Below the pieces are notes generated by a model. The model was not told where the DNA came from. It searched no databases and saw only the letters and a program-made list of their open reading frames with translations. A DNA stretch of 64,000 bases, taken from the IMG/VR virus record IMGVR_UViG_3300037418_002116, one strand, 5' to 3'. A program made the translations under genes and the position numbers. This document shows positions 274-60,399 of the stretch, piece by piece (positions within the stretch are counted from its first letter, which is position 1; every line of letters begins with the position of its first letter). The stretch is from a virus. Taxonomy: Duplodnaviria; Caudoviricetes.

Positions 274-443
274 TCTTTGTATCTTTCAATGGCCCGGATA
301 GCAGCACGGGCTTCGTCTTTGAATTCTTTCCAAAGTTCACATTTTGTAGAATCTTCGGAATCGCAAATCAGGCACAATCGCTTGTTGATAGTTTTGCCAG
401 CCGCAAGGCATATCTCACGGCTGACTGATTCCACTTTCGACAT
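270..443 (-). CDS. Small hypothetical protein (57 aa, Cys-containing)
   Basis: Manual translation MSKVESVSREICLAAG...ERYKE with GAGGA upstream; overlaps its neighbours as in a coupled operon. Confidence 0.5.
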   Translation of the reverse strand: MSKVESVSREICLAAGKTINKRLCLICDSEDSTKCELWKEFKDEARAAIRAIERYKE

Positions 444-1206
444 GACGATATTTTTCCTCGATCCGGAGCGGATTGCTGCGAACCATGCGTGTCCGGATGA
501 CCGGTTTCGTAGGATGATGTTCGAAAGGAATAGTCGCCAATTCGTTAATTGTCAACATCCTTTCTTCCGTAATCCGTGAAATTTCGGTGCCAACTCGGAA
601 ACAGGCAGCATGTTCTTCAAAGAAATCTATGCCAAATGCCTTTATCATCTCCAATTTCTCTCTTGTGTTCTTACCCATGAGTTTGGAGTGGCCAAAGAGG
701 TAATGCGCCGCCGATTGTACAGAATTTTTGAAGGCGTCTTGTTGACGCCAAAGGATCATATTGTTAGCTTCATCCATCGTCGGAACGTTGATGATTCTAC
801 AATCGAACGACGGTATCGTTTTGGGTTCCTCTCCAAAATAAGCACAATATGAAAGGGTAAATTTGGCAGCGCACATAGCGGCCAACACAGAAGCGAGTTT
901 CTGAATTTTACCATCGAACATGAATTGGCTTGGGCCTTCACACGGTTCCCAAATCAATGAAATTTCGTCCGATTGCGTGTACCCGAGTAGAGCCTTGGTT
1001 TCGTAGGCCAGATATTCGGTCGTGTCCTGCATACAAGCAGACATGTCACGGTCGAACGGACGCTTCATTCGTCTGGTAAAGCTGGAAAACGAGCGGCCAT
1101 CCAAACGGGCATAGATCGGGAGAGAGGTATCCAGTTTCTGTTCAGTGAAGACCTTTTCGTAGGTCTTCATGCGGTCACCGAAGTTGTCGTGGTGTTTTGT
1201 ACTCAT
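415..1206 (-). CDS. thg1: Thg1-like tRNA(His) guanylyltransferase / 3'-5' polymerase (TLP)
   Basis: Motifs RMKTYE, RLDGRSF, GYTQSDEISL, FDGKIQKL, FDCR and WRQQDAFKNS are typical of the Thg1 family. Confidence 0.9.
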   Translation of the reverse strand: MSTKHHDNFGDRMKTYEKVFTEQKLDTSLPIYARLDGRSFSSFTRRMKRPFDRDMSACMQDTTEYLAYETKALLGYTQSDEISLIWEPCEGPSQFMFDGKIQKLASVLAAMCAAKFTLSYCAYFGEEPKTIPSFDCRIINVPTMDEANNMILWRQQDAFKNSVQSAAHYLFGHSKLMGKNTREKLEMIKAFGIDFFEEHAACFRVGTEISRITEERMLTINELATIPFEHHPTKPVIRTRMVRSNPLRIEEKYRHVESGISQP

Positions 1207-2575: not shown

Positions 2576-4288
2576 CTAAAATGTTTCAACGGTTGAAAAA
2601 TTTCCTTTTTTCACCACTTTCATAACCCGGTCGAAATTATCCACCATATTTTCACGATGGGAAATGACTATGATATTCGTTTCCTCGCCCATGGAGCGCA
2701 GGATTTCGAATACGTACTTGATACCATCTTCGTCCAAAGAGGAATCACCAACTTCGTCCAGAATCAGCAAATTGGTAGCCATCGAATTTTTCTTTCGGGC
2801 GATCTGCCTCCAAGCGAAAAGAATAGCCAAATCAATACGTTGCTTTTCACCTTCCGAGAAATTTTCATAAGAGAAATCGTCCCGGTAACGGGATTTGATA
2901 GACTCCTGAAAATTTTCGTCCAGATTGAAGCTCACATAAAAATCCATGGCCGAAAGATACTCATTAATAAGCTCATTCATATAAGGAATATATCGCTGCA
3001 CGATAGCGGTTTTTAGACCGTTGTCTTTCAGCATGAGCGCCGCCACGTTTTCGACTTCCCGCTCATTCATGAGTTTCTGTTTCGTGTTGAAATATTCCGT
3101 TACCAGCTTCCGGGCCTTTTTGAGGTTAGCCTTGGTGGTTTCCTCTTGGGTCGCATCCGAGTCATCAACCAAATCAGATTCGAGCTTGGTGATGAATTTG
3201 TTGTTGATGTGGACAGAGGATTGAAGCTCTGAAATCTTGCGGTTGGTCCGGTCGAGAGCATCGATGACCGCACCCTTTTTTTCAAGGTGTTCCGCAATCT
3301 GAATGAGCTTGGCCTTTTCCAGTTTGATCGTCTCTTCTAGAGGCGTATATGAAGTCGTGTGCGTATGGATTTCTTCGGCCTTAAACGTGCCGTCGATGCT
3401 CTGTTTGCATGTCGGGCAGTGATCGTTCTTTTCATAGAAGGCAACCCGGTTTTTATGCTCCCGCACCTTCTGTTCCATGGTCTGGGTGAACGACTCAATC
3501 GTCTTCTGCTTTTCGATAAGCTTGGCAAATTTGGCCTTCTTATCGTCAAGCGTTTCCTTTTCGGTCAAAAGCGTTTCAATCTGCTTTTGACTTACTTCAT
3601 TTTCTCCAAGCAGCCGGTCAATCTCTGAACGGGCACGATCCTTTCTATCCTGCTTCTGTCTATTGATCGATTCAAGAAAATCTTCATTCATCTTGACTTT
3701 CTCTTGTTCGATCTTCAAGAGCCCTTCGACTTCTTTCAGATGCTCTCGATTTTCCTCTTGCTGTTCCTTGAGCAAGGAATTCATGCGAGAGAATACAGAG
3801 ATATCAAGCAGGTCTTCAATGATTTCACGACGCTGTTGCGCCGTCAAACGCATAAACGGAACATAGTTGTTCGATCCGAGTACGACAATCTGTTTGAAAG
3901 AATTGAAGTTCAGGTTCAGCACATTTTCTTCAATGTACTTCTGATAATCCTTTGACGATGCAGACTGATTTATCAGAGTGCCGTCCATATAGATTTCAAA
4001 CACCGCTGGCTTAATACCACGACGGATCATGTAGGTTTTACCCTTCGTCTCGAATTCAATTTCGACCAAAAGGTTTTTGCCATTGATGGAGTTCACCAAT
4101 TGTGGCTTATTGATTTTGCGAAAGTCCTTTCCGAACAACGCAAACGTCAGCGCCGAAATCATGGTCGATTTACCAGCGCCGTTTTGCCCAATGATGAGTG
4201 TTCTCGGATGTGAACTTAGGTCTATTTCGACGGGATCATTACCCGTTGCTAGAAAATTCTTGTAGAGTAGACGTTTAAAAATTACCAA
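2576..4288 (-). CDS. gp46: Recombination endonuclease ATPase subunit (Rad50/SbcC-like)
   Basis: Walker A GQNGAGKST, CPTC zinc hook, FSEGEKQR signature, LLILDE Walker B. Confidence 0.95.
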   Translation of the reverse strand: MVIFKRLLYKNFLATGNDPVEIDLSSHPRTLIIGQNGAGKSTMISALTFALFGKDFRKINKPQLVNSINGKNLLVEIEFETKGKTYMIRRGIKPAVFEIYMDGTLINQSASSKDYQKYIEENVLNLNFNSFKQIVVLGSNNYVPFMRLTAQQRREIIEDLLDISVFSRMNSLLKEQQEENREHLKEVEGLLKIEQEKVKMNEDFLESINRQKQDRKDRARSEIDRLLGENEVSQKQIETLLTEKETLDDKKAKFAKLIEKQKTIESFTQTMEQKVREHKNRVAFYEKNDHCPTCKQSIDGTFKAEEIHTHTTSYTPLEETIKLEKAKLIQIAEHLEKKGAVIDALDRTNRKISELQSSVHINNKFITKLESDLVDDSDATQEETTKANLKKARKLVTEYFNTKQKLMNEREVENVAALMLKDNGLKTAIVQRYIPYMNELINEYLSAMDFYVSFNLDENFQESIKSRYRDDFSYENFSEGEKQRIDLAILFAWRQIARKKNSMATNLLILDEVGDSSLDEDGIKYVFEILRSMGEETNIIVISHRENMVDNFDRVMKVVKKGNFSTVETF

Positions 4289-5815: not shown

Positions 5816-6365
5816 CTTTTTTCTTTGTCACCTTCTTTTTCTTCTTCTCTACCGAAGCTTCGAACTTTTCAACGAACAAGTTCATGTTCTCACGGGCACC
5901 ATCAGAATATTTCACCATGCTATTGTTACCGCCTTCCGTGCCGGATTGAGTTTCCGACGTGCCAAGAAAGATTTCAGTATTTTCAATAGATTTGAATTTG
6001 GTGTACAAATACTTCTTCTCTTTCTCGATACGACGCAAAAACGCATACCAAGAAATCTGGGTGAAATAAGAGAATGGAGAGGTTGATTTTTCGGGGTCGA
6101 AGTTGTCAATATATTGGATGCAATTAATGATGGCATCCGAGACAAGTTCATCACGGAAAGGATACTTCTGAAATTGATGTAGGTGAGATAGCTTTTCTGC
6201 AATATCCCACAAGCACTTTCCAATGTAATCATTGACTGGTGGCTTTGGTTTGCCTTGTTCCTTGGCAATCTTGACCGCAGTCGCATATTTCGTCATTTCA
6301 GTGTAAAACTTTTTGTTATCTACATAATGTTCCGCTGTTTCTTTGTTGTTCTTCTTAGATTTCAA
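5805..6365 (-). CDS. gp55: Late sigma factor
   Basis: HYVDNKKF...YPFRDELVSDAI..C.QY..NFDPEKS..PFSYFTQI.WYAFLRRI.KEKK, the T4 gp55 family pattern. Confidence 0.95.
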   Translation of the reverse strand: MKSKKNNKETAEHYVDNKKFYTEMTKYATAVKIAKEQGKPKPPVNDYIGKCLWDIAEKLSHLHQFQKYPFRDELVSDAIINCIQYIDNFDPEKSTSPFSYFTQISWYAFLRRIEKEKKYLYTKFKSIENTEIFLGTSETQSGTEGGNNSMVKYSDGARENMNLFVEKFEASVEKKKKKVTKKKDDE

Positions 6366-6652
6366 TGTAAATGTTTACTCTTCTCTTTCTGTTGTTCCTT
6401 CAATCTATCATGATAATCAGCCAGCAAGTCGTATGCATCGGCGGTTTTGTTTGCGTATAGGGTTCCAAGAATGGCGTTCGGCACAACTTTGAATAAGATG
6501 TCTGTCTTTTCTATTGTCACCATTTGATCGATACCGTAGGGAATAGCCGGTTGAATCGACATTCCCATTTGCTCCCCGGTATCGACAATTATTATATCCA
6601 TAACAGAGGACAGAAGAAGATGTGTTTCATCCTCTGCATCTCTTGTTCCCAT
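6362..6652 (-). CDS. Conserved T4-like hypothetical protein (Sm-like); true start probably upstream of the ATG
   Basis: The frame stays open upstream through ILYIRLKSGETIMG with no ATG/GTG/TTG. Confidence 0.6.
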   Translation of the reverse strand: MGTRDAEDETHLLLSSVMDIIIVDTGEQMGMSIQPAIPYGIDQMVTIEKTDILFKVVPNAILGTLYANKTADAYDLLADYHDRLKEQQKEKSKHLH

Positions 6653-6693
6653 TATGGTTTCGCCACTTTTAAGACGAATATATAGGATTCGTC

Positions 6694-8172
6694 TTAGATT
6701 TTTGTCGGAAGCTTGGCTTTGTATATTTTGTATTTTAAACCTTCCTTGGCATAGATTTTAAGCCGCTTTTCAAGGTGAGTATATGTATGATTCTTACGGT
6801 CGTTATGGCGAAAGTCATCCGCCAAATCGAACAATGTCACATGATCCTTTTCCTGACCACGGCGAAGGCCACGGCCAATGGATTGGAGATTACGAACTTT
6901 TGATTTGCTTGGGAAAGCGAAAATCATATAATCGAGGTTCACAATGTTAATGCCACGACTATACGTTCCATATGAAGCGACGATAATATTGTTTCGTGAC
7001 GCTTCTGTGTCTTCTCTGATTACTTCACGGTCGGCAACCGACACATCCCCGTAAACAAAATGAATATTCTTGTTTTTATCGTTTCTTTCCAGTATTTTAT
7101 CATACAATATTTTGCCATGTTTGTCAACATAATTGTAAAATACAAGAACATTGCCCGGCAAAGATTGTGCCAAGTTTGCAATGAAATTATTGCGTTCTTC
7201 GTTTGCTATAAGGAAAGCTACTTCTGTCTTGTACTCCTTATTTGCCTTCTTTGCGAAGTGTTGACGCACTTCATCTTCATAGCTGAATACAATCACTTTT
7301 AGGGTAAGATCGGAAGAGAACTTGCGATCTATCATTTCCCGTGTGCGGATGAACTGTTTGATCGGGCCGAACAGACCGGTCAATACCAGTTCGTGTAAAT
7401 CGACTTCATCAATCGTACCGGTGAACCCGAGGCGAACGGAGGCGTCCAGAACATCCATGATTTTCCGGATCGAAGCGCCCTTGGCTTCATGGGCTTCGTC
7501 CACCAACACGGCGTCATAGCCTTGAAACCAGCGCTTGGTTTGGTTGATGGCCGATTGCCACGTCGTGATAACGATATCGTTCAGATTGGTTTTCTGGAAA
7601 CCTTCATAGACACGGGAGCATTCATCCTGAACATTCCAGCTATCGTCCAGACTTGAATAATATGCAAAATCCTTGTACATTTGTTCCACCAGAGCTTTCG
7701 ATGGAACAATGAGCATTGTTTTACATTTGAAATATCGTATCAGAGAGTAGATGGCGAGCGACTTGCCGCTGTTCACGGCAGAAAGCGCCAGCATCCGTTT
7801 TTCACGGATTGCGTGTGCGATGGTCGCAAGCTGATAGTCTCGGGCTTCGATGCCTTCCGGCAATTTCAGGGTTTTAAGAAAATCTTCGGCTTCTTTGATC
7901 GAAAACGGTGCGTTCGAATCATCGAAGTGAACATCGCATTGATATCCTCGCTCTTCACAGAATACCTTGACATGGTTCAGGAGCCCGTAATAGAGCGTCT
8001 TGTCCTGAAATTTGTATAATCGAATTTTTCCATCCCAAATCTTCGCTTTGAATTTTGGACTGTGCACCGCATTGGGTGCCATAAACGTGAAAAATTCCCA
8101 AAGTTCTTTCTCTACCGCCGTCGTACTTCTGATTTTTATGTACGTGTTATTGTGATGGTAGACATCTACTAT
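6694..8172 (-). CDS. uvsW: UvsW SF2 helicase (start extended from the track's 8082 to a likely ATA 8172 or ATT 8184)
   Basis: WDGKIRL, RDYQ, VDEAH, GFTGT and LQSIGRGLR motifs; in-frame upstream IVDVYHHNNTYIKI...ELWEFFTF resembles the T4 UvsW N-terminus. Confidence 0.92.
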   Translation of the reverse strand: MVDVYHHNNTYIKIRSTTAVEKELWEFFTFMAPNAVHSPKFKAKIWDGKIRLYKFQDKTLYYGLLNHVKVFCEERGYQCDVHFDDSNAPFSIKEAEDFLKTLKLPEGIEARDYQLATIAHAIREKRMLALSAVNSGKSLAIYSLIRYFKCKTMLIVPSKALVEQMYKDFAYYSSLDDSWNVQDECSRVYEGFQKTNLNDIVITTWQSAINQTKRWFQGYDAVLVDEAHEAKGASIRKIMDVLDASVRLGFTGTIDEVDLHELVLTGLFGPIKQFIRTREMIDRKFSSDLTLKVIVFSYEDEVRQHFAKKANKEYKTEVAFLIANEERNNFIANLAQSLPGNVLVFYNYVDKHGKILYDKILERNDKNKNIHFVYGDVSVADREVIREDTEASRNNIIVASYGTYSRGINIVNLDYMIFAFPSKSKVRNLQSIGRGLRRGQEKDHVTLFDLADDFRHNDRKNHTYTHLEKRLKIYAKEGLKYKIYKAKLPTKI

Positions 8173-8183
8173 AGTATTGATAA

Positions 8184-8627
8184 TTACATTCCTGAATAAT
8201 ATTTTTTCATTTCAATCCAGTTGGCAATATCTTTTGTTCTATTCCAACGGATATAATCAATGACTTCTTTGCAATATAAAACGATATCTTCTTCTTTTTC
8301 TAAACGGTCCATGAGAGACTGATACATGGGATCAGCTTTAGCCATCTTTTCCGCTTGATCTTTCGTTTTCGCAATTAGCGGACTTTTGGCTGTTCTCTTC
8401 AATTCTTCAAGATATATGCCTTGAAGGTAATAACCCTCTAACCAAAACTGGACAGTTTCTTTTTTACGGAGTAGAGAACGATATATGTTTTTATGGGCAT
8501 GAAGATAGTTCAAATATTTTCTGTGAATCATCTGGCCACTGGCAGAGTCTTCAAGCATCCCATTTGGGTCATCATATCTAATGATCGAATCTTTAGCGTA
8601 TTCCGTTTGTATTTCTTCTAGTGTCAA
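8184..8627 (-). CDS. uvsY: UvsY recombination mediator
   Basis: Size, position next to uvsW, and the HRKYL...IxNxIExKKxxSG pattern; TTG start with AGGA SD. Confidence 0.75.
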   Translation of the reverse strand: MTLEEIQTEYAKDSIIRYDDPNGMLEDSASGQMIHRKYLNYLHAHKNIYRSLLRKKETVQFWLEGYYLQGIYLEELKRTAKSPLIAKTKDQAEKMAKADPMYQSLMDRLEKEEDIVLYCKEVIDYIRWNRTKDIANWIEMKKYYSGM

Positions 8628-9670: not shown

Positions 9671-9748
9671 GCCCATGTAGGCCAATCGGTTAGAGTCGGC
9701 GGACTTAAAATCCGTACAGTGTGGGTTCGAATCCCACCATGGGCACCA
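9671..9748 (+). tRNA. tRNA-Leu(UAA) with a short variable loop
   Basis: GCCCATG/CATGGGC acceptor, GCGGA-CTTAAAA-TCCGT anticodon arm, TTCGAAT T-loop, encoded CCA. Confidence 0.92.
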
Positions 9749-10210: not shown

Positions 10211-10287
10211 CGGCGGTTCGTACAGCGGCCTAGTACCCCCTGCTCATAACAGGTGCAACGCCGGTTCGAATCCGGCACCGCCAACCA
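10211..10287 (+). tRNA. tRNA with CAU anticodon (fMet-like acceptor end; Met versus Ile2 identity uncertain)
   Basis: CGGCGGT/ACCGCCA with a C1xA72 mismatch, GTAC/GTAC D-stem, CCCTG-CTCATAA-CAGGT, GCCGG-TTCGAAT-CCGGC, ACCA. Confidence 0.88.
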
Positions 10288-10289
10288 AA

Positions 10290-10385
10290 TTCCTCCGTTA
10301 CGGGCATGTACCGTCACTTGGAGTCCCCTATATTTCGCCGGTCGGATAGGGCACCGTTCAATTCGGGAAACGGAGGAGTCGACCA
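10290..10385 (+). ncRNA. tRNA-cluster structured RNA with a T-loop and CCA end
   Basis: TCCTCCGTT/AACGGAGGA closing stem, ACGG/CCGT and CCCTAT/ATAGGG arms, CCG-TTCAATT-CGG T-arm, 3' GTCGACCA. Confidence 0.65.
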
Positions 10386-10400
10386 TTCAACAAGGGAAAT

Positions 10401-10926: not shown

Positions 10927-11003
10927 TGGAACGTAGCTTAGCCCGGTAAAGCCCTCAACTGATAATTGAGAGATCAGTGGTTCGAATCCACTCGTTCCAA
11001 CCA
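10927..11003 (+). tRNA. tRNA-Ile(GAU)
   Basis: TGGAACG/CGTTCCA acceptor (U1-A72), CTCAA-CTGATAA-TTGAG, AGTGG-TTCGAAT-CCACT, ACCA. Confidence 0.93.
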
Positions 11004-12948: not shown

Positions 12949-13686
12949 TTGTTCAAATTTATAAAGGTAATTGGGGTTATTGCCTCGATTGCTGTCCTCT
13001 CAACTGCTTGCATATCTTACAAATATCATCATAATTCAATTAGTATTGTGCAAAACGACACGAATACCGTGATGATTGGCAATAAAATGTCCAAAAAAAA
13101 TCCAAAGACAAATGAAATGGAAGAAGGAACCGCCGCTGGCGCTGGCGTTCTTATTGATTCCACACATGTTATAACCGTCATGCATTTGCTTGACGAAGAT
13201 GGTTCGGCACCAGATATCACCATCACTACAAAAGATGGCAGAGAAATCCATGCTACTGTTATCGATACCGATAAAATCAACGATTTGATGGTATTGAAAC
13301 TCGATTCCTCTGTATCTGTCGATGTAACCACTCGATTCTCTTGTGTCAAGCCTACAGAGCTTGGTCGTTCTATCTATACCATCGGCCAACCAAATGGTTG
13401 GGAAAGAATGGTGACATTTGGATGGCTTTCTGTAGTCCAAATTCCAGATGGAAAAGATCATCCACATATTCCACAATGGATTGCCAATTTGGCCGCATTT
13501 CACGGTAATTCTGGTGGAGGAACCTTTGACAACATCACCGGTGCTGTCATCGGCATCACAGATGCAATTGCCTACTGGCGTGATGAATTCGGAACACATC
13601 CCGGCCCACTCACGCTGATGGTCGATCCGGCTGCAATGTGCGGAATCATGGCCAAAAATAATATCGATTTTAAGAAATCGAAATAA
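12949..13686 (+). CDS. Trypsin-like serine protease with a lipoprotein signal
   Basis: Lipobox LSTAC; catalytic TVMH, D(LMVL) and GNSGGG; CATAAATA late-type promoter at 12907-12914. Confidence 0.85.
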   Translation: MFKFIKVIGVIASIAVLSTACISYKYHHNSISIVQNDTNTVMIGNKMSKKNPKTNEMEEGTAAGAGVLIDSTHVITVMHLLDEDGSAPDITITTKDGREIHATVIDTDKINDLMVLKLDSSVSVDVTTRFSCVKPTELGRSIYTIGQPNGWERMVTFGWLSVVQIPDGKDHPHIPQWIANLAAFHGNSGGGTFDNITGAVIGITDAIAYWRDEFGTHPGPLTLMVDPAAMCGIMAKNNIDFKKSK

Positions 13687-15983: not shown

Positions 15984-16223
15984 ATGACTTTGTATAGTGT
16001 TCTCATTCGTGCAACGAATGATCCCGATAAAGTAAAGCTTTTTGTCTTTGATTTTGAACCTTCAAAAGAAACTATAGAAAAAGCATTGGATGAATGCGAA
16101 CTGGTGTTTGGCAAAAATCTAACTGGCTATAGTTTTAGCGGTACACTAATTAAGCGTAGTGACACAGACGAACCGCCAGAGATTAAGTTCTTTGATGGTT
16201 TCAACAAGTTTAATCGATCTTGA
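15984..16223 (+). CDS. Hypothetical protein
   Basis: Likely ATG 15984 within track ORF 15885..16223. Confidence 0.5.
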   Translation: MTLYSVLIRATNDPDKVKLFVFDFEPSKETIEKALDECELVFGKNLTGYSFSGTLIKRSDTDEPPEIKFFDGFNKFNRS

Positions 16224-16929
16224 CGGCTTTGTAGCCTTTGGAATGGCCATAGGTAATTAGATTGCCGTGTCTTACGCCATTGGCTTTGCTCCATGCTGTA
16301 AGATTGGTTATTTCCTCTTGGCGTCCATCTGGATATGTGACAAGCCATTTTGAAGCCATAGATTTGGAAATTTTATTTTTCCATTCTTCCGAGTGCTTTT
16401 TGCCTCGATTGGCTTCATGCATCTTGGCGGCATTTTCTCGATTAGTATCAATGCGAGTGGCAGCGGATTCACGCAACTTTTCTTTGGTTTCATTCGACAT
16501 TGCCTTACCCTTATTCCAAGGGACGTAATCTTTCTTCGCTTCACGCATTTTCTGCTTGGCTTCCTCTGTGTGTTTCTTACCATAGAATGGATTATCTGGA
16601 CCGGAGAATGAAGGCGGGCGACAATCGATAAGATGGTTCAAAAGGATACCGTGATAATCATAATTCAGACGCCCATATGTTTGAATTAATTCAGCTTCTA
16701 TATCATATGCGGTGCTTTCTTCAAGATTATCATGAAGAATTTTTATTTCTGGGTCTTTGCCGTATAGCTTTCGAATCTTGGCTATTCTGCCGTTCAGTCG
16801 TTTGTTATGGCAATACTCTGGTTTGTCAGTCAGATGTTGTTTGTATCGGTTTCCGGTCCCTTTGCCGATGTATAATGGTCTATCGGAGTTCGGATCGATT
16901 ATAGCGTATACGTAATATTTGTTTGTCAT
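16210..16929 (-). mobile_element. Free-standing GIY-YIG homing endonuclease with NUMOD3 repeats (Seg-like)
   Basis: YYVYAI...LYIGKG, NPFYGKKHTEEAKQKM, GKKHSEEWKNKIS; sits downstream of gp23 with a CTAAATA promoter at 16955-16961. Confidence 0.88.
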
Positions 16930-18433: not shown

Positions 18434-19693
18434 TTAGCGATTTTTACGAAGATTCTTGGTCATCATAGAAGCAATTGCCTGTCCAACTGGATTTACATCC
18501 TTAGCTGTCGAAGCATCTACTTCTTCTGTAATAACAACTGGTTCATCGTCGGCGTCGATAGAAGTCTTCTTTACATCCTTAGCGAAGTAAGATTCTTTCA
18601 AGTCTTTAATCTGACTTACGAAGTCTTCTTCATCTTCGAATTCGATGCCTTCTGCGAGCATAACTAGACGTTCTTTCTGATTTGCAGAAAGACCATCTAC
18701 ATGTTCCATCACCAATGCAGTTTTCTTTGATTCATTAAGTTCGTTTGCGAGAGCAACGTTCTTATTGATTTCTTCGTCAAGAGAAGCTTCAAGTGTTCCA
18801 ACACGGGAAACAAGTTCTTCAACAATGTCTACTTTGTCATCTGGGATTTCAATGTAGTGTTCTTCGAAGAGATTCTTCAAACCAACTAGGAATGATTCAG
18901 CGATTTCTGTACGAACGTTCGACTGAATTTCAACCTTATTTTCTTCAAGCCATTCAGAAACAACCTTATCAAGGTAGTCGTCCATCTTTTCTACAAGATT
19001 TTCAACGAATACTTCCTGATCCTTTTCATTCTGTTCAAGAATCTGGTCCACTACTTCCGAAATAACTTCGTTAGCAGCCGCAATAACAGCGGTTTCGAAA
19101 ATGTTCTTTGTCTTTTCCTTGAACGATTCAGTCAAATCTTCCTTGCCGAGCAAAGCAGCAAGGTGTTCAGAGATATCCAAGTCTTCCTTGGTTACCTTAC
19201 GAACTTTGATATCGACTTCCTGACCGCCCTTGTCGTCATCGCTCGAATCGTCGTCTGAATCATCTGAGTCAGAGTCGTCATCGCCACCAGCGGCATCGGC
19301 AGGCTTCTTAAGCTTGGTGATCTTACCGGCGTTGTTGTCGTCGGCCTGATTGTCGTTGTCGTCATCAACATCATCGTTCATGTCTTCATCGGCAGCTTCA
19401 CCAATGACAGAAGCCTTATCCTTCTGCTTGAACTTCTTATGGTTGATGTCTTTCTGATTGTCGTTCTTGGCCTTATCAATGCCAGCTTCGATCTTCGAAT
19501 TGTCGGCAGAGACGTTATCAACGTCGCCGGGAAGGTCTGGACCGGTCTTCTTAAGGTCTTTCTTCGTAGGAACGTTCTTACGCTTGTCGAAAACAACGTC
19601 TGGAACTTCCGAAGTTTTGTCGTCTGACTTGAACGCTTCTTCAAGAGCCTTTTCTTTTACTGACTTTTTGATTTCATTCAAAAGCTTTGACAT
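18434..19693 (-). CDS. gp22: Prohead core scaffold protein
   Basis: Acidic coiled coil with LxESFKEK...IFETAV, AESFLVGLKNLFEEHYIEIP; adjacent to gp23. Confidence 0.92.
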   Translation of the reverse strand: MSKLLNEIKKSVKEKALEEAFKSDDKTSEVPDVVFDKRKNVPTKKDLKKTGPDLPGDVDNVSADNSKIEAGIDKAKNDNQKDINHKKFKQKDKASVIGEAADEDMNDDVDDDNDNQADDNNAGKITKLKKPADAAGGDDDSDSDDSDDDSSDDDKGGQEVDIKVRKVTKEDLDISEHLAALLGKEDLTESFKEKTKNIFETAVIAAANEVISEVVDQILEQNEKDQEVFVENLVEKMDDYLDKVVSEWLEENKVEIQSNVRTEIAESFLVGLKNLFEEHYIEIPDDKVDIVEELVSRVGTLEASLDEEINKNVALANELNESKKTALVMEHVDGLSANQKERLVMLAEGIEFEDEEDFVSQIKDLKESYFAKDVKKTSIDADDEPVVITEEVDASTAKDVNPVGQAIASMMTKNLRKNR

Positions 19694-19762
19694 GTTAACT
19701 GTATTCTCCTAGAGAGTTATAATTTCTTGTTTTATTTAGCAAATGGAGTATTTTGACAGTTA

Positions 19763-28824: not shown

Positions 28825-28869
28825 TTTTTCTGCTTGACTCTTAAAAGCGAATAGATTATACATATACTC

Positions 28870-29190
28870 GTTGTGATGAAGACGACTGAAAGGTATTCAG
28901 GACTCGGGGGCGGAACCCGACTAGTCCACCACAACCAGATAGAGGGACGAAAGCCCGGCCAATAACACGGCGTCGTATGATGGCTGGCGTTCTATCTGGT
29001 TATGATGGGCTAGAAACAGGATCGACTGGTACGTAATAGGAAGTTGGAGCAACCGGCATTGTACCGCCGTTATCGGGCTAAACACAATAAGAGACAACGA
29101 TAACTTCGTTCCTCTGGCAATCGCTGCCTAATCAGCAGTAGCCAATGAGTTTTGGCGGTTGAACTTGGAAACAGAATCAACCGCCGCTTC
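28870..29190 (+). ncRNA. ssrA: Circularly permuted (two-piece) tmRNA
   Basis: Acceptor piece ends CTAGTCCACCA (28931); coding piece starts GGGCTAGAAACAGGATCGAC (29007); G3-U70 pair; tag frame DNDNFVPLAIAA* at 29093-29131; promoter TTGACT-17-TATACA at 28834. Confidence 0.9.
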
Positions 29191-32863: not shown

Positions 32864-33340
32864 ATTGTTCAATGCGTCTAGAGTTTGTTCTAGAGTTCCG
32901 GTGAAAACGGCCTTGTCGATGTAGACCTTTGCGTTTCCATTCGTATCCGGCATATAAATTTTTCTTTTTTTCTCGATATACGCCATCTTCGAAGAAAAAA
33001 TATTTACTCGCTTTTCGTTGCCATCGATGATGGTTTTGAGCAAGCCGTTGAGCGCTTGGAAGTCTTTGTCATCTTCCGTGTCAGAGGCTATCTGTGCGGC
33101 CTTTTCAGCCGCCTCTACAGCGATTTCCAAGGCATCTGCTATGTTGCGTCTCGCTTCCTCGAAATCTGCCTGTAGCTGTTGCTCTTCGGCATCCATCGGT
33201 TCCGTGACCGCACCGCCGACACTCACGGGAGCCGGAAGATTTTGTGCTTCCGTTAGGGTTTCCGGTTGAGTGTCCGTTAGGTTTTCGTGTTCCGGTTCTG
33301 GATCGATATCCAAAATTTCATGAATTAATTTTTTTGTCAT
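32843..33340 (-). CDS. gp16: Terminase small subunit
   Basis: DFEEARRNI..., helical core and AVFTG.LEQ C-terminus; follows gp15. Confidence 0.75.
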   Translation of the reverse strand: MTKKLIHEILDIDPEPEHENLTDTQPETLTEAQNLPAPVSVGGAVTEPMDAEEQQLQADFEEARRNIADALEIAVEAAEKAAQIASDTEDDKDFQALNGLLKTIIDGNEKRVNIFSSKMAYIEKKRKIYMPDTNGNAKVYIDKAVFTGTLEQTLDALNNKKEEDN

Positions 33341-34209
33341 TTGTCGGTTCCTGTCACAGGATCATATTTCTTTCCGTCCTGAAACTCTTGAATGGCAGTA
33401 ATGAAGCCATAATCGTCTTCTTTATTTATGTCCTGATATGGGATTGTAAGATTTGGGTCTGATGTGGGTTGGCCATCGCTTGTCAGACCGGGAGTCACCA
33501 TGATACGAGCAACACGCCCATGGGCCTGCATTTCGTCTTCTGTGATTTTTCCAAGGCCGGGTATCGAGTGGAAATCCACCTGAACACGTTTGATCACTCC
33601 TGATTTCTGAATCGGGCCAAAAATCCATCCATCGATTTCGAAGTTGAAGGTAGCAGTCAGCACACGGCGTTCCTTGAAATCGCCATCGTAAATGTCGTCC
33701 ATCGTCGGTGCATCCAACATGTTGACACGAGCATCATATTTGTAGGCAGAGCCCGGAATCAAATCGAGCGTCGTGTTGAAATCACCATTGAAGAATGGGA
33801 CAATCTGTTCCACAATCTGGTATACATCATCCGTGTTAACCGACATTGCATAGAGTTGAAATTTAAATTTCACGGCAACCGGCATGAATTGTGTAAGAAC
33901 TTTGTTTCCATCATCGACAATAGACACCAATTTATGTATGGCATTGTTCTTACGGCTTTCATCGATTGTGAAACCATCGCAAATGAACCCCATGCGAGGC
34001 AATTGTATCTTGACAACTGGATTGTTGGCAGGGTGATCCTTCATCAATGCGTACCATTTTTGCTTTGGAGCATAGGTGATAGGAACCTTTATTTGTTGAA
34101 GTTCCGTTTTGTCAGCCGCCAGACGGGTAATGTAGATTTCATTGAAAATGTTTCCGAACATAATCACGTATTTTCTGGTAGTCGAGTGATAAAAGCTGTG
34201 GCCTAAAAT
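33337..34209 (-). CDS. gp15: Tail terminator / sheath stabiliser (ATT start inferred)
   Basis: KVPITYAPKQKW, LPRMGF, QIVEQIVPFF; AGGAGG-5 nt-ATT TTA GGC CAC = (M)LGHSFYHSTTRKYV. Confidence 0.92.
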   Translation of the reverse strand: MLGHSFYHSTTRKYVIMFGNIFNEIYITRLAADKTELQQIKVPITYAPKQKWYALMKDHPANNPVVKIQLPRMGFICDGFTIDESRKNNAIHKLVSIVDDGNKVLTQFMPVAVKFKFQLYAMSVNTDDVYQIVEQIVPFFNGDFNTTLDLIPGSAYKYDARVNMLDAPTMDDIYDGDFKERRVLTATFNFEIDGWIFGPIQKSGVIKRVQVDFHSIPGLGKITEDEMQAHGRVARIMVTPGLTSDGQPTSDPNLTIPYQDINKEDDYGFITAIQEFQDGKKYDPVTGTDK

Positions 34210-43245: not shown

Positions 43246-43886
43246 TTTAGTCCTTCGTAAATTTCAATATCTTTTTCGTAGTATTTATTCACAGCTTTAA
43301 GTGCTGCATCATCGTAAAACCAAGATAAGTAATCTTTCGTAAGACGATTTTTTGGTAGGGATTTATTCTTCCACATCAGCGGAACTTTAATTTGAATGTT
43401 ATGTGTTTCACTGAATTCATCGATGTGTTTTTGTATATCGTCAAATAACCACCATTCGCCTATATTCTGGCCCTTATAGGTAAGAAATGAAGATTGAAGC
43501 TGGTTTTGCCATTTTCTATCTGGAAAATACCCATGCTTCGTCACTATTTTTTTGAAATCCTCCGCAGTTAAAGATTTGTTAAACCCCTGCTTTTGTCGAT
43601 AGAGAAAAAGTGAAACCACTCGTTCTAAAGGATTTCTGATGATGCCGATGAATCTATCTGTTTCATGGGCGAGTCGGTGTTTTATGACATACTCGACATC
43701 CATGTGAGAATGATCGGCATGTTTCGGTGACATGTTTTGTGAATGTGGAATATTAAGTTCATCATAGTAATTCGAGAACGAATCTTCCGGCTGAACTACG
43801 TTATCGATGAAGAAACGTCTTACAGACGTTGAAGCATTCTTTGGAATGTTGATAAAATTGAAGCCGAAACGCTTAATACTAATCAT
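43233..43886 (-). CDS. Sulfotransferase-like protein
   Basis: PAPS motifs FINIPKNASTSV and IIRNPLERVVS. Confidence 0.85.
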   Translation of the reverse strand: MISIKRFGFNFINIPKNASTSVRRFFIDNVVQPEDSFSNYYDELNIPHSQNMSPKHADHSHMDVEYVIKHRLAHETDRFIGIIRNPLERVVSLFLYRQKQGFNKSLTAEDFKKIVTKHGYFPDRKWQNQLQSSFLTYKGQNIGEWWLFDDIQKHIDEFSETHNIQIKVPLMWKNKSLPKNRLTKDYLSWFYDDAALKAVNKYYEKDIEIYEGLKCSH

Positions 43887-44445
43887 TTAAAAGAAAGGAA
43901 TTTAGAGAAAGACGAATGCCACCTGTCGATTTGTAGGAGTGCCATGTTAGGCCAGTTTTGCCAGCGAACACCATCATGCGGTTTGGCTTCCATTCGATTT
44001 GCTTGACGAAATTTTTTTCTTGGTCATAGATCAAGGTTCCCTGTCCTTCCTGTGGATAGAGATAGGTAACAGCGGAAATGACTTTATTTTCAGCTTCGTC
44101 ATGAATGGGGTGTTCTGATGCATCTAGACACAGGATAGCCTCACCATAGAGAGTAAGGTTTGAATAGTTTCGTTTATCCGCAAAATATTCGAGGAAATTT
44201 TTTGTGTCTCTGCTTTCTAACAAATTTTTGGTATTCGGAAATTTTGAATTTTTGTATAGATTGCTTTTCGTAATGAAAATTTTGTCCGCTGTTTTGGTGA
44301 TGAATTCGCTTCGATCATTTCGAAGCACGGCGAAAATTTCCATAACGGCCAAAGCCATCTGCCCTTCGGTATAATAATCATCAATAACAATATGCGGCCA
44401 TGGCTTATCGAAACGATACAATTCGTTGCTCAATTTTTTCTTCAA
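43879..44445 (-). CDS. 2OG-Fe(II) oxygenase
   Basis: HxD (IHDE), distal WHS and RxS; WPHIVIDDY start pattern. Confidence 0.8.
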   Translation of the reverse strand: MKKKLSNELYRFDKPWPHIVIDDYYTEGQMALAVMEIFAVLRNDRSEFITKTADKIFITKSNLYKNSKFPNTKNLLESRDTKNFLEYFADKRNYSNLTLYGEAILCLDASEHPIHDEAENKVISAVTYLYPQEGQGTLIYDQEKNFVKQIEWKPNRMMVFAGKTGLTWHSYKSTGGIRLSLNSFLLND

Positions 44446-45235
44446 ATCCTTCCTTGGAAACGTCGATGCAGAGTTTATGTGTGAACCATGATAGGAATCG
44501 ACTTAAATCATCCTGATTGACCGGTTCGATATCCTCTAGCTGATATGCACTGTCAATTTTCGGGACAATTTCCGAAAATGCCATCGTGTCGTAGGTAGCA
44601 CATGGTTTGCCTTTCAGCATGGCATTGAGGCTCACGCTGGACCATGAACTAAACACTTTGTCGGCATTGTCCAACAAATGATCAAGGTTACAATTTGCAT
44701 CAGCAAAAATTATGTAGTCAGAATTATGTATACAAATTTCGGTCAATGGATGCTGCTTGAAAACAGTATATACTTTTTGTTCTTCCGCATATTTCATCGC
44801 ATCAAGCATATGATCATATTCAGGTCCAATATTGTCTTGCAATAAAAAGAGATTATATTTGTCTGGTAAATCTATAATGCGAGAGCCTTGACTATATTTT
44901 GTTCCAAAAATTTTTGTGACATCGTGGTCTATGTCGCATTCCTTCCATTGATGGAGGAATGGATTAACTTTATCGAGATACATTTTATTTGGTGTGAATA
45001 CATAAAGGTCTGTCTTTGGCGAACCAAAACGCCATGTCAGCGTTTGCTCAAAATTCATGTTATTGTAAAGTTCTGCAAAAATGCAGTTTCTTAAGTCATG
45101 CTTTTCGAGGATTGCGTCAACCAAATTTGCCACTTTTAGCATGTTCGGAAACATGTAATGGGTTTGTGGTAATCCCTTTACACCATTCATCCATTGCAAG
45201 CAGAGGTTACGGTTTGATCGAAAACATGAATTCAT
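44405..45235 (-). CDS. Capsule-synthesis (KpsS/KpsC-like) glycosyltransferase-like protein
   Basis: FKQHP and SSVSLNAMLKGKPC motifs; likely true start near 45190. Confidence 0.6.
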   Translation of the reverse strand: MNSCFRSNRNLCLQWMNGVKGLPQTHYMFPNMLKVANLVDAILEKHDLRNCIFAELYNNMNFEQTLTWRFGSPKTDLYVFTPNKMYLDKVNPFLHQWKECDIDHDVTKIFGTKYSQGSRIIDLPDKYNLFLLQDNIGPEYDHMLDAMKYAEEQKVYTVFKQHPLTEICIHNSDYIIFADANCNLDHLLDNADKVFSSWSSVSLNAMLKGKPCATYDTMAFSEIVPKIDSAYQLEDIEPVNQDDLSRFLSWFTHKLCIDVSKEGFEEKIEQRIVSFR

Positions 45236-45911
45236 CGTCCTCGCCTACATGTTTGGCTATTAATTTAGCATCTAAAGAAACTATGTTTTTCTTTCGAACA
45301 TAAATTACAGGACATTCGTTGGATAGAGCATTCTTTATTGTTTCTACAAACCAGTCTTCACGATCCGGTCTGCAAACCAGACACACCATGGAACTGTCGA
45401 ATGCAAATTTTGTTGCATCTTTAATCTCTACTGGAAATTCATAACTTTGATATGGCATAATATCGAGACAAGTTACGTCGAACCCGGCATCTGAAAGGGC
45501 CTTTCCTGTGGAGCCGTTACCAGCGCCGCAATCGATGACATGTTTGCCACCATGAAGTTTTTTCATTTTGTTTATGAATGTCTTATTCGGTCGAAAAAAT
45601 TGTTCGGAAGGGAGTAATTCCGGAACTGCTTTTAAAATTTCAGCGAATTGTTCATCGGTTAAAGTTCTCTCACTATAAGAAGCTACAATGTCACTTTCTC
45701 TGCTTTTCTTGTATGCGGCAATTACTTTCTCTGTCCATACAGTGTTATAAGCCTCTATAATTGCTTGTTTGACTTCTTCAATCACATAGTCATTTGGATT
45801 AGTGAGAACCCATTCATTGTTGTAAACATGGGCTGGCGGAATCTCGAATGTCAATCCGGGCAATTCAAGATGGAGAATCTTGAAGGTTCCTACGTATCTT
45901 ACGTTTCTCAC
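45207..45911 (-). CDS. Methyltransferase-domain protein
   Basis: VIDCGAGNG...VTCLDI. Confidence 0.7.
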   Translation of the reverse strand: MRNVRYVGTFKILHLELPGLTFEIPPAHVYNNEWVLTNPNDYVIEEVKQAIIEAYNTVWTEKVIAAYKKSRESDIVASYSERTLTDEQFAEILKAVPELLPSEQFFRPNKTFINKMKKLHGGKHVIDCGAGNGSTGKALSDAGFDVTCLDIMPYQSYEFPVEIKDATKFAFDSSMVCLVCRPDREDWFVETIKNALSNECPVIYVRKKNIVSLDAKLIAKHVGEDDEFMFSIKP

Positions 45912-46777
45912 GGTTCTACAAATCTCATACTCTGTACAAAATTGCTGTAGAAATAAAAGGTAGTCGTGGTGCCTCCACCACCGTGACCACCGCCACCACC
46001 CGTTGTTATAGATGTATAAGAAGTGTCAGTAGTAAAAGTTCCAGCAGCATCCATTGTATTCAATGCAATTTGTCTAGAATTGCCACCATATGTATTGTTT
46101 GTTTCTAGAATCCTAGTATTTGTTGGTCCTCCATGTGAAATTGAAGGAATACCAGAATCAGCTATACTCAATCCGCCTTTGATGAATACTAAATCATTTT
46201 GTGCTACTGATAGACTTGTTGTACTATGAGATGACGAAGTGCTTTGTCCACCAGCATAGAATGCATTAGATACACCACTCCATCTACCGGGAAGAACATA
46301 GACCATTTGTGAGTTCGTATCAGATGTGCTACTTGCTTTATTGAAGGTTGCAGCGACGGACGTTAAGTTTCCAAAGCCAATTGGCACTTGAAATTGAAGT
46401 AACTTGAAAGCAGTACCAACACCGGTCGTTTTGCTGTACAATAATGTTTCATCTGTTGCTGAATAAGCCCCACTATTAACGTTCACAACAGTAGTTCCGG
46501 GTGTGCTACCTTCATTCAAGACCAACAATGTGGTCCATCGACTCTGTAAACTGATTGCGGCTTGGGGATATGTTAAAGTGCCGGAAACAGACGTTGCGGT
46601 TGCAAAGGTAGAATCAAAAGCTTCATTAAACGGACCAACAGTTGTATTGGTTTCAAACCCCTGATTAACAGAAGTTTTAGAAATCATCGCATTTCTCGAT
46701 GAAATAGTTTTCAGTGCTGAAATTACATCAGATACACCAACTAGAACTACTGATGGAATAGACGCTGGAAAAAACAC
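45908..46777 (-). CDS. Ser/Thr/Gly-rich virion protein, probable fibre tip or adhesin
   Basis: Coupled to the tail-fibre gene; composition. Confidence 0.55.
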   Translation of the reverse strand: MFFPASIPSVVLVGVSDVISALKTISSRNAMISKTSVNQGFETNTTVGPFNEAFDSTFATATSVSGTLTYPQAAISLQSRWTTLLVLNEGSTPGTTVVNVNSGAYSATDETLLYSKTTGVGTAFKLLQFQVPIGFGNLTSVAATFNKASSTSDTNSQMVYVLPGRWSGVSNAFYAGGQSTSSSHSTTSLSVAQNDLVFIKGGLSIADSGIPSISHGGPTNTRILETNNTYGGNSRQIALNTMDAAGTFTTDTSYTSITTGGGGGHGGGGTTTTFYFYSNFVQSMRFVEP

Positions 46778-57837: not shown

Positions 57838-59711
57838 TAAAGAGTTACCGTATTAGAGATACCGTCCACATCGATTAATGTTTCATTACCAATCACTTGC
57901 ACGATATCAGTAAAGATCAATTTACTCTTTGACGTATCGAACATATTGAATGTAGGATTCGACAAAAGAATGATTTGATTATTTTGTGAGTATATATCTG
58001 TGGCATTCGGTTGTGCAGAAATAACAACTTCGTCATCATAATCTGTGAAAATGAACGACTTCATACTCAAAGTGCCATTCAGGTAATCAACCGTTCCAAC
58101 GTCGTTATCGTAATAGTTCTTTGTAGACCCCACCAGATAGTAGAGGCGCAAGGTGCCGTTCCCGTCGTCATCGAGATACATTGTTTGGTCAGAACCGGCT
58201 ATTTCAAAACCATTCGAAGAGATACACCCTTGATATTCAGTGAAAGGGCAGTATAGTTGATTTTGGAAATCCACGTTGTAGTTAAACTTAGAGTTTAGGA
58301 CCGGCGCAAAACGTTTCTCAATCGTGATGGAGACTTGGTTTGATTCAATTGCATTATCAGAATTATCGACCATGGTTGAGAATTTAGATTGGCGGAATCT
58401 ATTGCCAAATACACCAAGCTCCGTCGTTTCGAAATTTTGAACGTTTGTGGCGATCTTTGAAAAAAGTTCGTCAACTGAAAGAAGCGACTGACTTGAATTG
58501 TAATTTACTTGAACCACTGGCTTGACAAACAAGAATACAGGATCGATAATCGCCGGATCAATTGACATAGGATTGAACTTCTTAATGTCGTTGATGATTT
58601 CCGATTTGCGGTTCTCTGTAATAACAAAGCCAGTGACCGGCTTAACTGCAATGATCGATTTACCATAGAGTGGAGGATTATGGGTTTCGCCGCCCCATAC
58701 GTTCACTGCTTCAATATCCGAGTAATTTGAGAGAATGAAGTTTTTGTAGTCAGCCGCCGTGATCAAACGATTTTGAATCTCGAAATTGCGAGGCGCATTG
58801 AACTTGATTGAATCGATAGTTTCTTCATCCTGTCCCTCACGGGCACGAAGTGTGACACTCACGATATTGCAGATGTACTTTACCGTTGGGCTATCTTTAT
58901 TATAGCCTGTGTAACCGATTTTCGAGAAAGAATATGCATTATTTGGCGCTTCACCGTTGCAAGCACGGAATGTGATTGTCACGATGTTGTTTAAGTCGAG
59001 TGCCTTACCAAGAATGCCATCACCAAAATAGATTTCATAGAAGCCATTGGAATTTTTCTGTAGATAGTACACAGTAGAAGTCGCTGAAACCTCTGTAGCG
59101 TCCTTTACGAGCGTGTATGTGGTCTTTGTCGTGGAGGTAGACGATGCTTGTACTTCGACGGTCATTGTTGAAGTATCGACACCAGCCACCGGAATTTCAT
59201 AGAGTTTGCGAGTAGCGTTCACTGTATATTTGTTAGAAAGCACGACGCCTTCATAGATATCAATATTTTTTTGATATACACCACCGGCTGACTGAACAAC
59301 ATAGTCGGCAAGTGTTGAAAAGTAATAAACTACGCCATCAATAGTTGTCGAAAATTTGGTGTACGCTGGAATAACAATTTCCGATGGAGAATCATTCGGT
59401 GTGAACGAAATGGACAACTGCGCCCGAGCCGAACGGGCCGAACGTGGCGTATAATTTAGCATTTTTGAAATAGAATAAACGCTTTCCTTCATGATTGCCG
59501 AATCGAGGAAAGTTTCGTTTGCCACCATATTCAGATAGAACGAATTATAATATGTGTTGTATGCAAGCACGTCCAACAATGTAGACATGGTTGAACCTTC
59601 GAAGTCAAAATCGGTAAATTCTGGCTTTGCTCTCAAAAAGTTTTTGAGATTATTTTTGATTTCGAAGAAACCAAGTTCTGAAACTTGCAAATTTGTGTTA
59701 GCTAATGCCAT
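57837..59711 (-). CDS. gp6: Baseplate wedge subunit
   Basis: DFDFEGS..STLLDVLAYNTYYN, EIYFGDGILG, QNRLITAADY, VWGGE. Confidence 0.96.
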   Translation of the reverse strand: MALANTNLQVSELGFFEIKNNLKNFLRAKPEFTDFDFEGSTMSTLLDVLAYNTYYNSFYLNMVANETFLDSAIMKESVYSISKMLNYTPRSARSARAQLSISFTPNDSPSEIVIPAYTKFSTTIDGVVYYFSTLADYVVQSAGGVYQKNIDIYEGVVLSNKYTVNATRKLYEIPVAGVDTSTMTVEVQASSTSTTKTTYTLVKDATEVSATSTVYYLQKNSNGFYEIYFGDGILGKALDLNNIVTITFRACNGEAPNNAYSFSKIGYTGYNKDSPTVKYICNIVSVTLRAREGQDEETIDSIKFNAPRNFEIQNRLITAADYKNFILSNYSDIEAVNVWGGETHNPPLYGKSIIAVKPVTGFVITENRKSEIINDIKKFNPMSIDPAIIDPVFLFVKPVVQVNYNSSQSLLSVDELFSKIATNVQNFETTELGVFGNRFRQSKFSTMVDNSDNAIESNQVSITIEKRFAPVLNSKFNYNVDFQNQLYCPFTEYQGCISSNGFEIAGSDQTMYLDDDGNGTLRLYYLVGSTKNYYDNDVGTVDYLNGTLSMKSFIFTDYDDEVVISAQPNATDIYSQNNQIILLSNPTFNMFDTSKSKLIFTDIVQVIGNETLIDVDGISNTVTL

Positions 59712-59716
59712 TTAGA

Positions 59717-60118
59717 TTAACGTGTTCTCTCTAGAAATAGTGAAATTTCGACCGGATGTTGAAAACTCAATGGTTTGATGACTACGGTTATTTCGAATGA
59801 ATTGGCGTCAAGATTGTCTGTCAATGTGATAGAAAGCAATTCAGCACGTTCCGCATAATTTGCGATAACATCAGAAATCGCCGTCTTGACTGTTTGTACC
59901 GTCACGGGGTCGAAACTTTCGAAAAGGGACTCGTTCAAACCACCGAATACCTTTGGACGGAACAAGGTTTCGTAGTGATTGGTGAAAATAAGATTTTTGA
60001 CTTGCTGCTTGACCGCATTTTCATTCTTGACAATATTCACCGCTCCGGTTTCCGGATGGGGAATAAATTTCAAAGATAAATCACGATAGATATCTTTTTT
60101 CGTAAGTTTCGTAACCAT
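59717..60118 (-). CDS. gp25: Baseplate wedge subunit
   Basis: YRDLSLKF.PHP, AVKQQVKNLIFTN..E; start at ATG 60118 (TAATG overlap). Confidence 0.92.
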   Translation of the reverse strand: MVTKLTKKDIYRDLSLKFIPHPETGAVNIVKNENAVKQQVKNLIFTNHYETLFRPKVFGGLNESLFESFDPVTVQTVKTAISDVIANYAERAELLSITLTDNLDANSFEITVVIKPLSFQHPVEISLFLERTR

Positions 60119-60399
60119 TATGCCCCTATAGTAATTTGTGTTTGCGATGAAACCACCGTCGATGCACCGCAATATCGAGAGTCGCCATGTCTATGAATTG
60201 CTTTCCCGGCAACTGTCCATTTTCCGGAGCCTGTAGAAGAATTGGTAGCACCGGATGGATGAGGGGCTAAATCGCCTCCCGCCACGGTATCAACCGTTGT
60301 CACCAGCTTACCGCCGACTGTCCATGTTGTCTGTGGAGGAGTCTGCAATGCGCCCGCACCATGCGAATTTAGATCGCCAACCAAAGCTAAAAGTGGTAT
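60118..60399 (-). CDS. gp5.4: PAAR-like spike tip protein (ATA start inferred)
   Basis: (M)PLLALVGDLNSHG...HRHGDSRYCG; GGAG SD 7 nt before ATA; TATAAATA at 60425-60432. Confidence 0.85.
   Translation of the reverse strand: MPLLALVGDLNSHGAGALQTPPQTTWTVGGKLVTTVDTVAGGDLAPHPSGATNSSTGSGKWTVAGKAIHRHGDSRYCGASTVVSSQTQITIGA

Follow-up and report, generated by a model that had tools for sequence, protein, structure and literature searches.

A T4-like soil phage tRNA(CAU) with an initiator-type acceptor end on an elongator body, and AUU/AUA start codons that occur independently of it

Can a phage tRNA be responsible for genes that start at AUU or AUA (AUH codons)? This question is raised by the window analysed here, a stretch of 64,000 nucleotides from a T4-like soil phage, in which profile searches find gp15, UvsW, UvsY, gp46-like and PAAR genes. 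A first-pass annotation of this DNA described a chimeric CAU tRNA which, if lysidinylated, would read AUA, and proposed that together with a neighbouring tRNA-Ile(GAU) it opens a phage-specific route of initiation at AUH codons. Both the hybrid tRNA, an unusual one, and the AUH starts, part of them clade-wide, prove to be real. The features involved are collected in Table 1.

Table 1. Positions of the features discussed, in the window and in related phages.
Feature	Sequence	Positions	Strand	Remarks	Basis
tRNA(CAU)	window	10211..10287	+	C1xA72, A73, encoded CCA, elongator/Ile2-like body	ARAGORN, Rfam, covariation
tRNA-Leu(UAA)	window	9671..9748	+	first of three-tRNA islet	ARAGORN, Rfam
tRNA-Ile(GAU)	window	10927..11003	+	U1-A72; third islet member	ARAGORN, Rfam
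Thg1-like 3'-5' nucleotidyltransferase	window	415..1206	-	candidate 5'-end repair enzyme	Pfam PF04446, 97 bits
uvsW helicase	window	6694..8184	-	start ATT 8184-8182, overlapping uvsY stop (TAATT)	Pfam UvsW_N
gp15 tail sheath stabiliser	window	33337..34209	-	start ATT 34209-34207 behind TAGGAGGT	Pfam, PHROG
PAAR spike tip	window	60118..60399	-	probable start ATA 60399-60397, GGAG 7 nt upstream	
GIY-YIG/NUMOD3 homing-endonuclease-like gene	window	16210-16929		near major capsid protein gene	
Permuted two-piece tmRNA	window	28830-29185		alphaproteobacterial type	Rfam alpha_tmRNA, 126 bits
DNA polymerase (gp43)	G001	93233-95767	-	start ATA/ATT behind GGAG-type site	
DNA polymerase (gp43)	G003	179414-181972	+	start ATT behind GGAG-type site	
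Second CAU tRNA	G001	58902-58977 (L141 103-178)	-	UGCGGAG...CUCCGCA-A-CCA, U1-A72	
GOLLD match	G001	44880-45112 (L142)		partial, cut by locus end	Rfam, 85 bits
tRNA-Ile(UAU)-like gene	L090	8197-8292			
tRNA-Ile(UAU)-like gene	G003	125529-125620			
tRNA-Ile(UAU)-like gene	L091	2362-2455			
tRNA-Ile(UAU)-like gene	L102	1088-1181			

The tRNA(CAU) gene scores 42 bits against the Rfam tRNA model (cut-off 29), with non-standard pairs at 1:72 and 27:43 only; it was missed when the whole window was run with the Rfam gathering-mode filters. The acceptor stem consists of C1xA72, G2-C71, G3-C70, C4-G69, G5-C68, G6-C67 and U7-A66, and is followed by A73 and the encoded CCA. The anticodon stem (C27xU43, C28-G42, C29-G41, U30-A40, G31-C39) closes a CUCAUAA loop. 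The molecule is therefore a hybrid, with an initiator-type acceptor end on an elongator body, and the earlier description of C1xA72, G2-C71 and A73 without three anticodon-stem G-C pairs is confirmed by the sequence and by ARAGORN and Rfam.

Measured against known classes, tRNA(CAU) has the unpaired C1xA72 with A73 that is typical of initiators. Of the three G-C pairs of initiators (29-31:39-41) only one is present, and the full set is lacking in all 10 members of the tRNA family described below. In the D stem, U11:A24 (C11:G24 in the allele of G001) stands in place of the A11:U24 of initiators. Nor does the gene fit an elongator tRNA-Met, with a paired 1:72 and no pairs recognised by TilS, as it has C1xA72 and C4:G69. 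C1-A72 is the major determinant for transformylase, assisted by A73, G2-C71, C3-G70 and G4-C69, and the attached amino acid has no influence on formylation (PMC9976931). Among the minor determinants the window tRNA has G2-C71, but G3-C70 instead of C3-G70 and C4:G69 instead of G4-C69; C3-G70 is limited to the G001-type allele.

An assembly slip is excluded, as contigs from two other public runs (soil or rhizosphere) match the tRNA at 100%. Contigs of four soil runs hold fragments identical to the window only, with zero variants. The 5' end of the tRNA lies 3 nt past the stop codon of a small ORF, and since a promoter scan found no sigma-70-like site directly upstream, the tRNA is probably cut out of a longer transcript.

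Syntenic relatives were gathered by protein searches and contig look-ups and graded by UvsW identity to the window. The closest lineage (L083, L084, L177, L178) stands at 94%, followed by G001 (L086; 80%, 196 kb, rated complete), G002 (L098, listed between G001 and L087), L087 (73%), L088 (69%), G003 (L089; 63%, 242 kb with terminal repeats, complete) and L090 (60%). G001 and G003 were fetched whole. A further 80 IMG/VR loci found via UvsW were all at most 46% identical and were left out of the comparisons. INPHARED gave no close relatives when the tRNA region was searched with megablast and blastn, and an exact search for the tRNA pattern in IMG/VR gave no match.

The trio Leu(UAA)-CAU-Ile(GAU) is found in the same order in G001, G002, L087, L088 and L177. 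The syntenic locus of G003 has lost the islet tRNAs, and its CAU tRNA is sited elsewhere in the genome, while the L090 islet has a tRNA-Ile(UAU) where other relatives carry the trio. The tRNA-Ile(GAU) of the islet does have the weak U1-A72 pair to which attention had been drawn, and retains it in all relatives, but this pair is ordinary, occurring in 22 of 155 phage tRNAs. The tRNA-Ile(UAU)-like genes, present in several phages, are 92-96 nt long with a long insert at the position of the variable arm; the G003 copy is unreported by the Rfam tRNA model. HNH or NUMOD3 genes occur at various sites around the islet in relatives, and the window has a GIY-YIG/NUMOD3 homing-endonuclease-like gene (Table 1). 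The partial GOLLD match in G001 overlaps a weak tRNA-like match.

A family alignment of ten members was built (window, L177, G001, G002, L087, L088, G003, G004, Agrobacterium phage Atu_ph07 and Burkholderia phage BcepSauron). The last two were found by blastn of the tRNA alone, and the tRNA is unannotated in both. Compensation is seen at 17 of the 21 pairs and 95.2% of the cells are paired, which marks the tRNA as real and under selection. Unpaired cells are confined to 1:72 (four, all C-A), 27:43 (four) and 13:22 (two). The family shares the anticodon arm NNCUG-CUCAUAA-CAGNN, a pattern with 4 matches in about 185,000 bacterial species genomes, all of them in tRNA-rich or isolated contexts and phage-derived by appearance.

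The C-A mismatch occurs in the window, L177, G001 and G002. Position 1:72 is C-G in L087, G-C in L088, G003, G004 and BcepSauron, and A-U in Atu_ph07. In a collection of 172 distinct phage tRNAs, the only bearers of C-A at 1:72 are five CAU tRNAs, of which three represent this subclade and two are clear initiator types. Because of this restriction, and because the mismatch has been kept in four lineages whose UvsW proteins are about 20% apart, it looks selected rather than accidental. About 17 positions separate the window allele from that of its closest relative, among them the 3:70 and 5:68 pairs, which are flipped, while C1 and A72 are unchanged. As the flanks of the two genes are about 97% identical, the tRNA gene has probably been exchanged as a cassette or converted. 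The roughly 100 nt 3' of the gene (window 10288-10390, L177 3694-3800) are likewise about 97% identical, and this element is absent in G001.

These patterns leave very little room for the idea that C1xA72 is a neutral or mildly deleterious change in a little-used tRNA heading to decay. Phage tRNAs are often mismatched, for example at 27:43 here and in the acceptor stem of T4 tRNA-Ile, and loss of the islet tRNAs has occurred at the G003 locus. However, compensatory change keeps all other stems, and C1 and A72 have outlasted the many differences between the two closest alleles. A single A72-to-G transition would repair the pair, yet C-A is found in four lineages.

The second half of the question concerns the start codons. 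That gp15, PAAR and uvsW start at AUU or AUA, as previously suggested, is borne out by profiles and homologue alignment. In uvsW the UvsW_N profile starts at residue 16 of the stop-to-stop frame, 27 codons 5' of the first ATG, and the first canonical start is codon 43. The gp15 profiles of Pfam and PHROG start 8-12 codons 5' of the first GTG/ATG, and the ATT aligns with the initial Met of 13 homologues. The gene starts with ATG in G001 and G003, and also in a 90%-identical relative which is without a 26-nt insert that carries the Shine-Dalgarno (SD) sequence in the window. Gain of this insert along with the change from ATG to ATT has a designed look, as if codon strength had been traded for ribosome-binding strength. 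The ATA of PAAR is matched in the alignment by TTG starts in G001 and G003, with the SD position kept, and an alternative TTG five codons downstream has no SD.

Comparison of about 75 window ORFs with G001 and G003 gave no other convincing AUH start. Apparent N-terminal extensions (for example at 6362-6757, 18434-19708, 45207-46025, 43879-44502 and 55747-57852) were rejected as shadows of overlapping upstream genes, conserved SD regions or low-complexity matches. TTG starts are frequent in the window and are often ATG in the G001/G003 orthologues (2576-4288, 8184-8627, 43879-44445, 12949-13686). In this clade the strength of a start codon seems to be tuned freely.

Do the AUH starts go together with the tRNA? 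Genome-wide AUH screens covered G001, which has C1xA72, and G003, in which the pair is closed; comparison of the window, the closest lineage, L087 and L088 was by individual genes. For the closest lineage gp15 was taken from L081/L082 and the tRNA from L177/L178, which come from the same samples. All seven relatives tested have an AUH start in uvsW, and none a canonical one: ATA in L083/L084, G001, L087, L088 and L090, and ATT in G003. An in-frame stop lies just 5' of this start in most relatives, which excludes fusion and frameshifting. A second gene, gp43, lacks a canonical start for 35-43 conserved codons in G001 and G003; in G003 the first ATG comes after 42 conserved codons, and alignment with homologues starts at residue 2. 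In the screen of G001 against G003 (159 orthologue pairs), AUH starts were found in uvsW and gp43 only. On this distribution the AUH starts of uvsW and gp43 are ancestral, and those of gp15 and PAAR private to the window phage.

Across the genomes compared, neither kind tracks the 1:72 state of the tRNA. The only CAU tRNA of G003 has G1-C72, and an initiator-like tRNA is missing from the genome, yet both uvsW and gp43 start at AUH there; L087 (C1-G72) and L088 (G1-C72) likewise use ATA in uvsW without a C1xA72 tRNA. Conversely, G001 and the closest lineage possess the C1xA72 tRNA and have gp15 starting at ATG, with PAAR at TTG in G001. The link between tRNA and AUH starts fails on these two sets of cases, and with it the proposed dependence of the starts on phage tRNAs. 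In addition, two of the three AUH starts in the window are AUU, a codon that lysidine cannot read.

The same evidence bears on a narrower form of the first-pass proposal, in which the tRNA is lysidinylated, charged with isoleucine and partly formylated, and initiates at AUA (perhaps AUU) in a dual use resembling that of mitochondria. Such a part-time initiator could have let gp15 and PAAR move onto AUH codons and would explain why the mismatch is kept. We rate both statements as improbable. They can draw on C1xA72 sitting on an Ile2-like body, on formylation being indifferent to the amino acid (PMC9976931), on uvsW starting with ATA in at least five of seven relatives, and on the extra AUH starts of gp15 and PAAR in the window phage. 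Set against this are the independent occurrence of starts and tRNA in both directions, the predominance of AUU among the AUH starts of the window phage, an anticodon stem without P-site determinants, and the G3:C70 of the window allele, a less favourable pair for formylation than the ancestral C3:G70. The deformylase that had been attributed to the phage is not in the window and was seen only in syntenic relatives.

An ordinary E. coli extract can translate from AUA or AUU if the initiation region is good, and nutrient state, ppGpp and context affect such starts (PMC5499595), a behaviour that fits regulatory use without a special tRNA. The AUH starts described here are probably read by the ordinary initiator tRNA.

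If the tRNA does not serve these starts, which amino acid would it carry? The choice lies between tRNA-Ile2, in which C34 of the CAU anticodon is converted to lysidine, and methionine. C4:G69 and C29:G41 had both been named as TilS determinants. This holds for C4:G69, which is a determinant for TilS and IleRS alike, but C29:G41 is documented for IleRS and not for TilS (PMC9976931, PMC12514573). TilS elements are C4:G69 and C5:G68 in E. coli (PMC12514573), and G3:C70 and C4:G69 are critical for TilS of B. cenocepacia (PMC11947777). IleRS relies on A73 and the anticodon loop, with C4-G69, U12-A23 and C29-G41 as minor determinants (PMC9976931).

The two main alleles match these rules in different ways. 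The window allele has the B. cenocepacia TilS pairs G3:C70 and C4:G69 as well as C29:G41 and A73, but A12:U23. The G001-type allele has the E. coli elements C4:G69 and C5:G68, together with U12:A23, C29:G41 and A73. Thus the CAU anticodon with A37, A38 and A73 expected of Ile2 is present, and so are acceptor-stem TilS pairs by the E. coli or B. cenocepacia rules, from which the host TilS may differ. Within the family, A73, the CUCAUAA loop and C29:G41 are found in all ten members and C4:G69 in eight; L088 and G003 have A4:U69 instead. U12:A23 is seen in G001, L177, G002 and L087, and A12:U23 in the window, L088 and G003.

Context also helps. L099 carries three CAU tRNAs: one with the family arm, which adjoins tRNA-Ile(GAU) and has Ile determinants, one elongator-Met-like and one initiator-like. 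AUA is used 7.0 times per 1000 codons in the window, 8.9 in G001 and 14 in G003. In G001, U34 tRNAs cover nearly all A-ending codons apart from AUA, and there is no UAU tRNA. The tRNA-Ile(UAU) in the L090 islet also points to a need for AUA decoding. Given the match to published TilS and IleRS rules, the L099 arrangement and the demand for AUA decoding, Ile2 is the identity that we favour, with some reserve. It is weakened by A4:U69 in L088 and G003, by the missing U12:A23 in the window, by the G004 family member, which lies in a tRNA set aimed at GC-rich codons, by the long-armed UAU tRNA that G003 may also hold, and by the near absence of the anticodon arm from bacterial genomes. Searches of G001-G003 turned up neither a TilS nor a formyltransferase domain, which would leave these steps to host enzymes.

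The opposite identity would have the tRNA keep C34, be charged with methionine and formylated by the host, giving a second, phage-made fMet initiator without the G-C pairs checked by IF3. The tRNA has the major determinant for formylation and two to three of the minor ones (PMC9976931), the C-A at 1:72 is confined to CAU tRNAs and its other bearers are clear initiator types, and the company of GC-codon tRNAs kept by the G004 member would suit such a role. The subclade already has an initiator-like tRNA, though. This second CAU tRNA of G001 has an initiator-like acceptor end and a UUCAAAU T loop, is misread by ARAGORN as tRNA-Ala, and has no counterpart in the complete G003. Its anticodon stem is likewise without three G-C pairs, which lends the idea some support. 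Against it, tRNA(CAU) lacks both the three G-C pairs and A11:U24 and carries TilS and IleRS elements, those of its orthologues whose 1:72 is C-G or G-C are plain elongators, and no phage formyltransferase was found in G001-G003. We consider an fMet initiator unlikely, if less so than the other alternatives weighed here.

It may also be that C1 is not the mature 5' nucleotide. The end would be removed and rebuilt against A72 by the Thg1-like enzyme, or edited otherwise, to give an elongator with U1-A72. We know of no nuclease that would remove C1. The enzyme is encoded in the window and conserved in L086, L088, L089 and L090, and U1-A72 is found in the clade's tRNA-Ile(GAU) as well as in its initiator-like tRNA. 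Thg1-like proteins add templated nucleotides to 5'-truncated tRNAs (PMC4820378). However, the enzyme is equally conserved in L088, L089 and L090, where the tRNAs are paired or absent from the locus, and nucleotide -1 is an A, which offers no alternative pairing. Repair of this kind seems a doubtful explanation, slightly more so than an fMet initiator.

The explanation that we prefer, and to which we give about an even chance, is that tRNA(CAU) is a tRNA-Ile2-type elongator that depends on host TilS and reads AUA, kept in a conserved islet. Host TilS would convert C34 to lysidine, host IleRS would charge the product with isoleucine, and the charged tRNA would read AUA codons in elongation. The alphaproteobacterial-type tmRNA of the phage points to an alphaproteobacterial host, which, if GC-rich, would serve AUA poorly. 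Lysidine, isoleucine charging, the decoding role and the host group are all things we infer. G001 also has a permuted tmRNA, with the tag ANDNVAHEFAVAA.

In the subclade formed by the window, its closest relative, G001 and G002, a single G72-to-A transition may have turned C-G into C-A, which would have been kept since. A tRNA with an open C1xA72 is expected to be a poor ligand of EF-Tu. The mismatch should thus weaken EF-Tu binding and invite formylation; the phage may tolerate it, mend it or use it for something other than start codons. Because C1-A72 is a formylation determinant whatever the amino acid attached, a pure elongator role is awkward. The AUU/AUA starts of uvsW, gp43, gp15 and PAAR are a separate trait, weak codons behind good SD sites that ordinary fMet-tRNA would read with a third-position mismatch and that would set low or regulated expression.

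If tRNA(CAU) is aminoacylated, then either host transformylase and EF-Tu handle it in an unexpected way or its end is repaired, and either outcome would be informative on how tRNAs are sorted between initiation and elongation. To our knowledge, no natural tRNA has been described that joins an elongator (Ile2-like) body to a bacterial formylation end. The AUA/AUU starts of DNA polymerase and UvsW, found clade-wide in the members tested, offer a natural system for weak, IF3-sensitive regulatory start codons. Standard gene callers truncate such genes (uvsW, gp43).

Among known systems, tRNA(CAU) is most readily compared with tRNA-Ile2 (E. coli ileX and phage T4 tRNA-Ile), with which it shares CAU in a CUCAUAA loop, A73, C4:G69 and C29:G41. 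T4 tRNA-Ile, annotated as an isoleucyl-tRNA, has CAU, C4:G69, C29:G41 and a 27:43 mismatch, and in T4, as here, the CAU tRNA of a T4-like phage stands beside tRNA-Leu(UAA). Unlike tRNA-Ile2, the phage tRNA has C1xA72 in place of a paired 1:72, its window allele has A12:U23 and G5:C68, and its lysidine and isoleucine charging are putative. With bacterial tRNA-fMet it has C1xA72, A73, G2-C71 and CAU in common, and C3-G70 in the G001-type allele; it differs in lacking G29-C41, G30-C40 and A11:U24, in having C4:G69, and in that the orthologues of sister lineages are paired at 1:72.

Mammalian mitochondria use one tRNA-Met for initiation and elongation, and it reads both AUG and AUA. It is a precedent for a single, partly formylated CAU tRNA that reads AUA at starts, but it has 5-formylcytidine instead of lysidine and carries methionine, and the phage tRNA shows no sign of dual use. 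Precedents for the start codons are AUU in E. coli infC and pcnB, where initiation is sensitive to IF3, and an AUU that serves as an internal start in T4 gene 26. The phage AUH starts resemble these in being weak AUU/AUA codons behind an SD, read in those systems by the normal initiator tRNA (PMC5499595). They differ in being conserved across the clade in DNA polymerase and UvsW, and in their number, about 3 of about 70 genes in one window.
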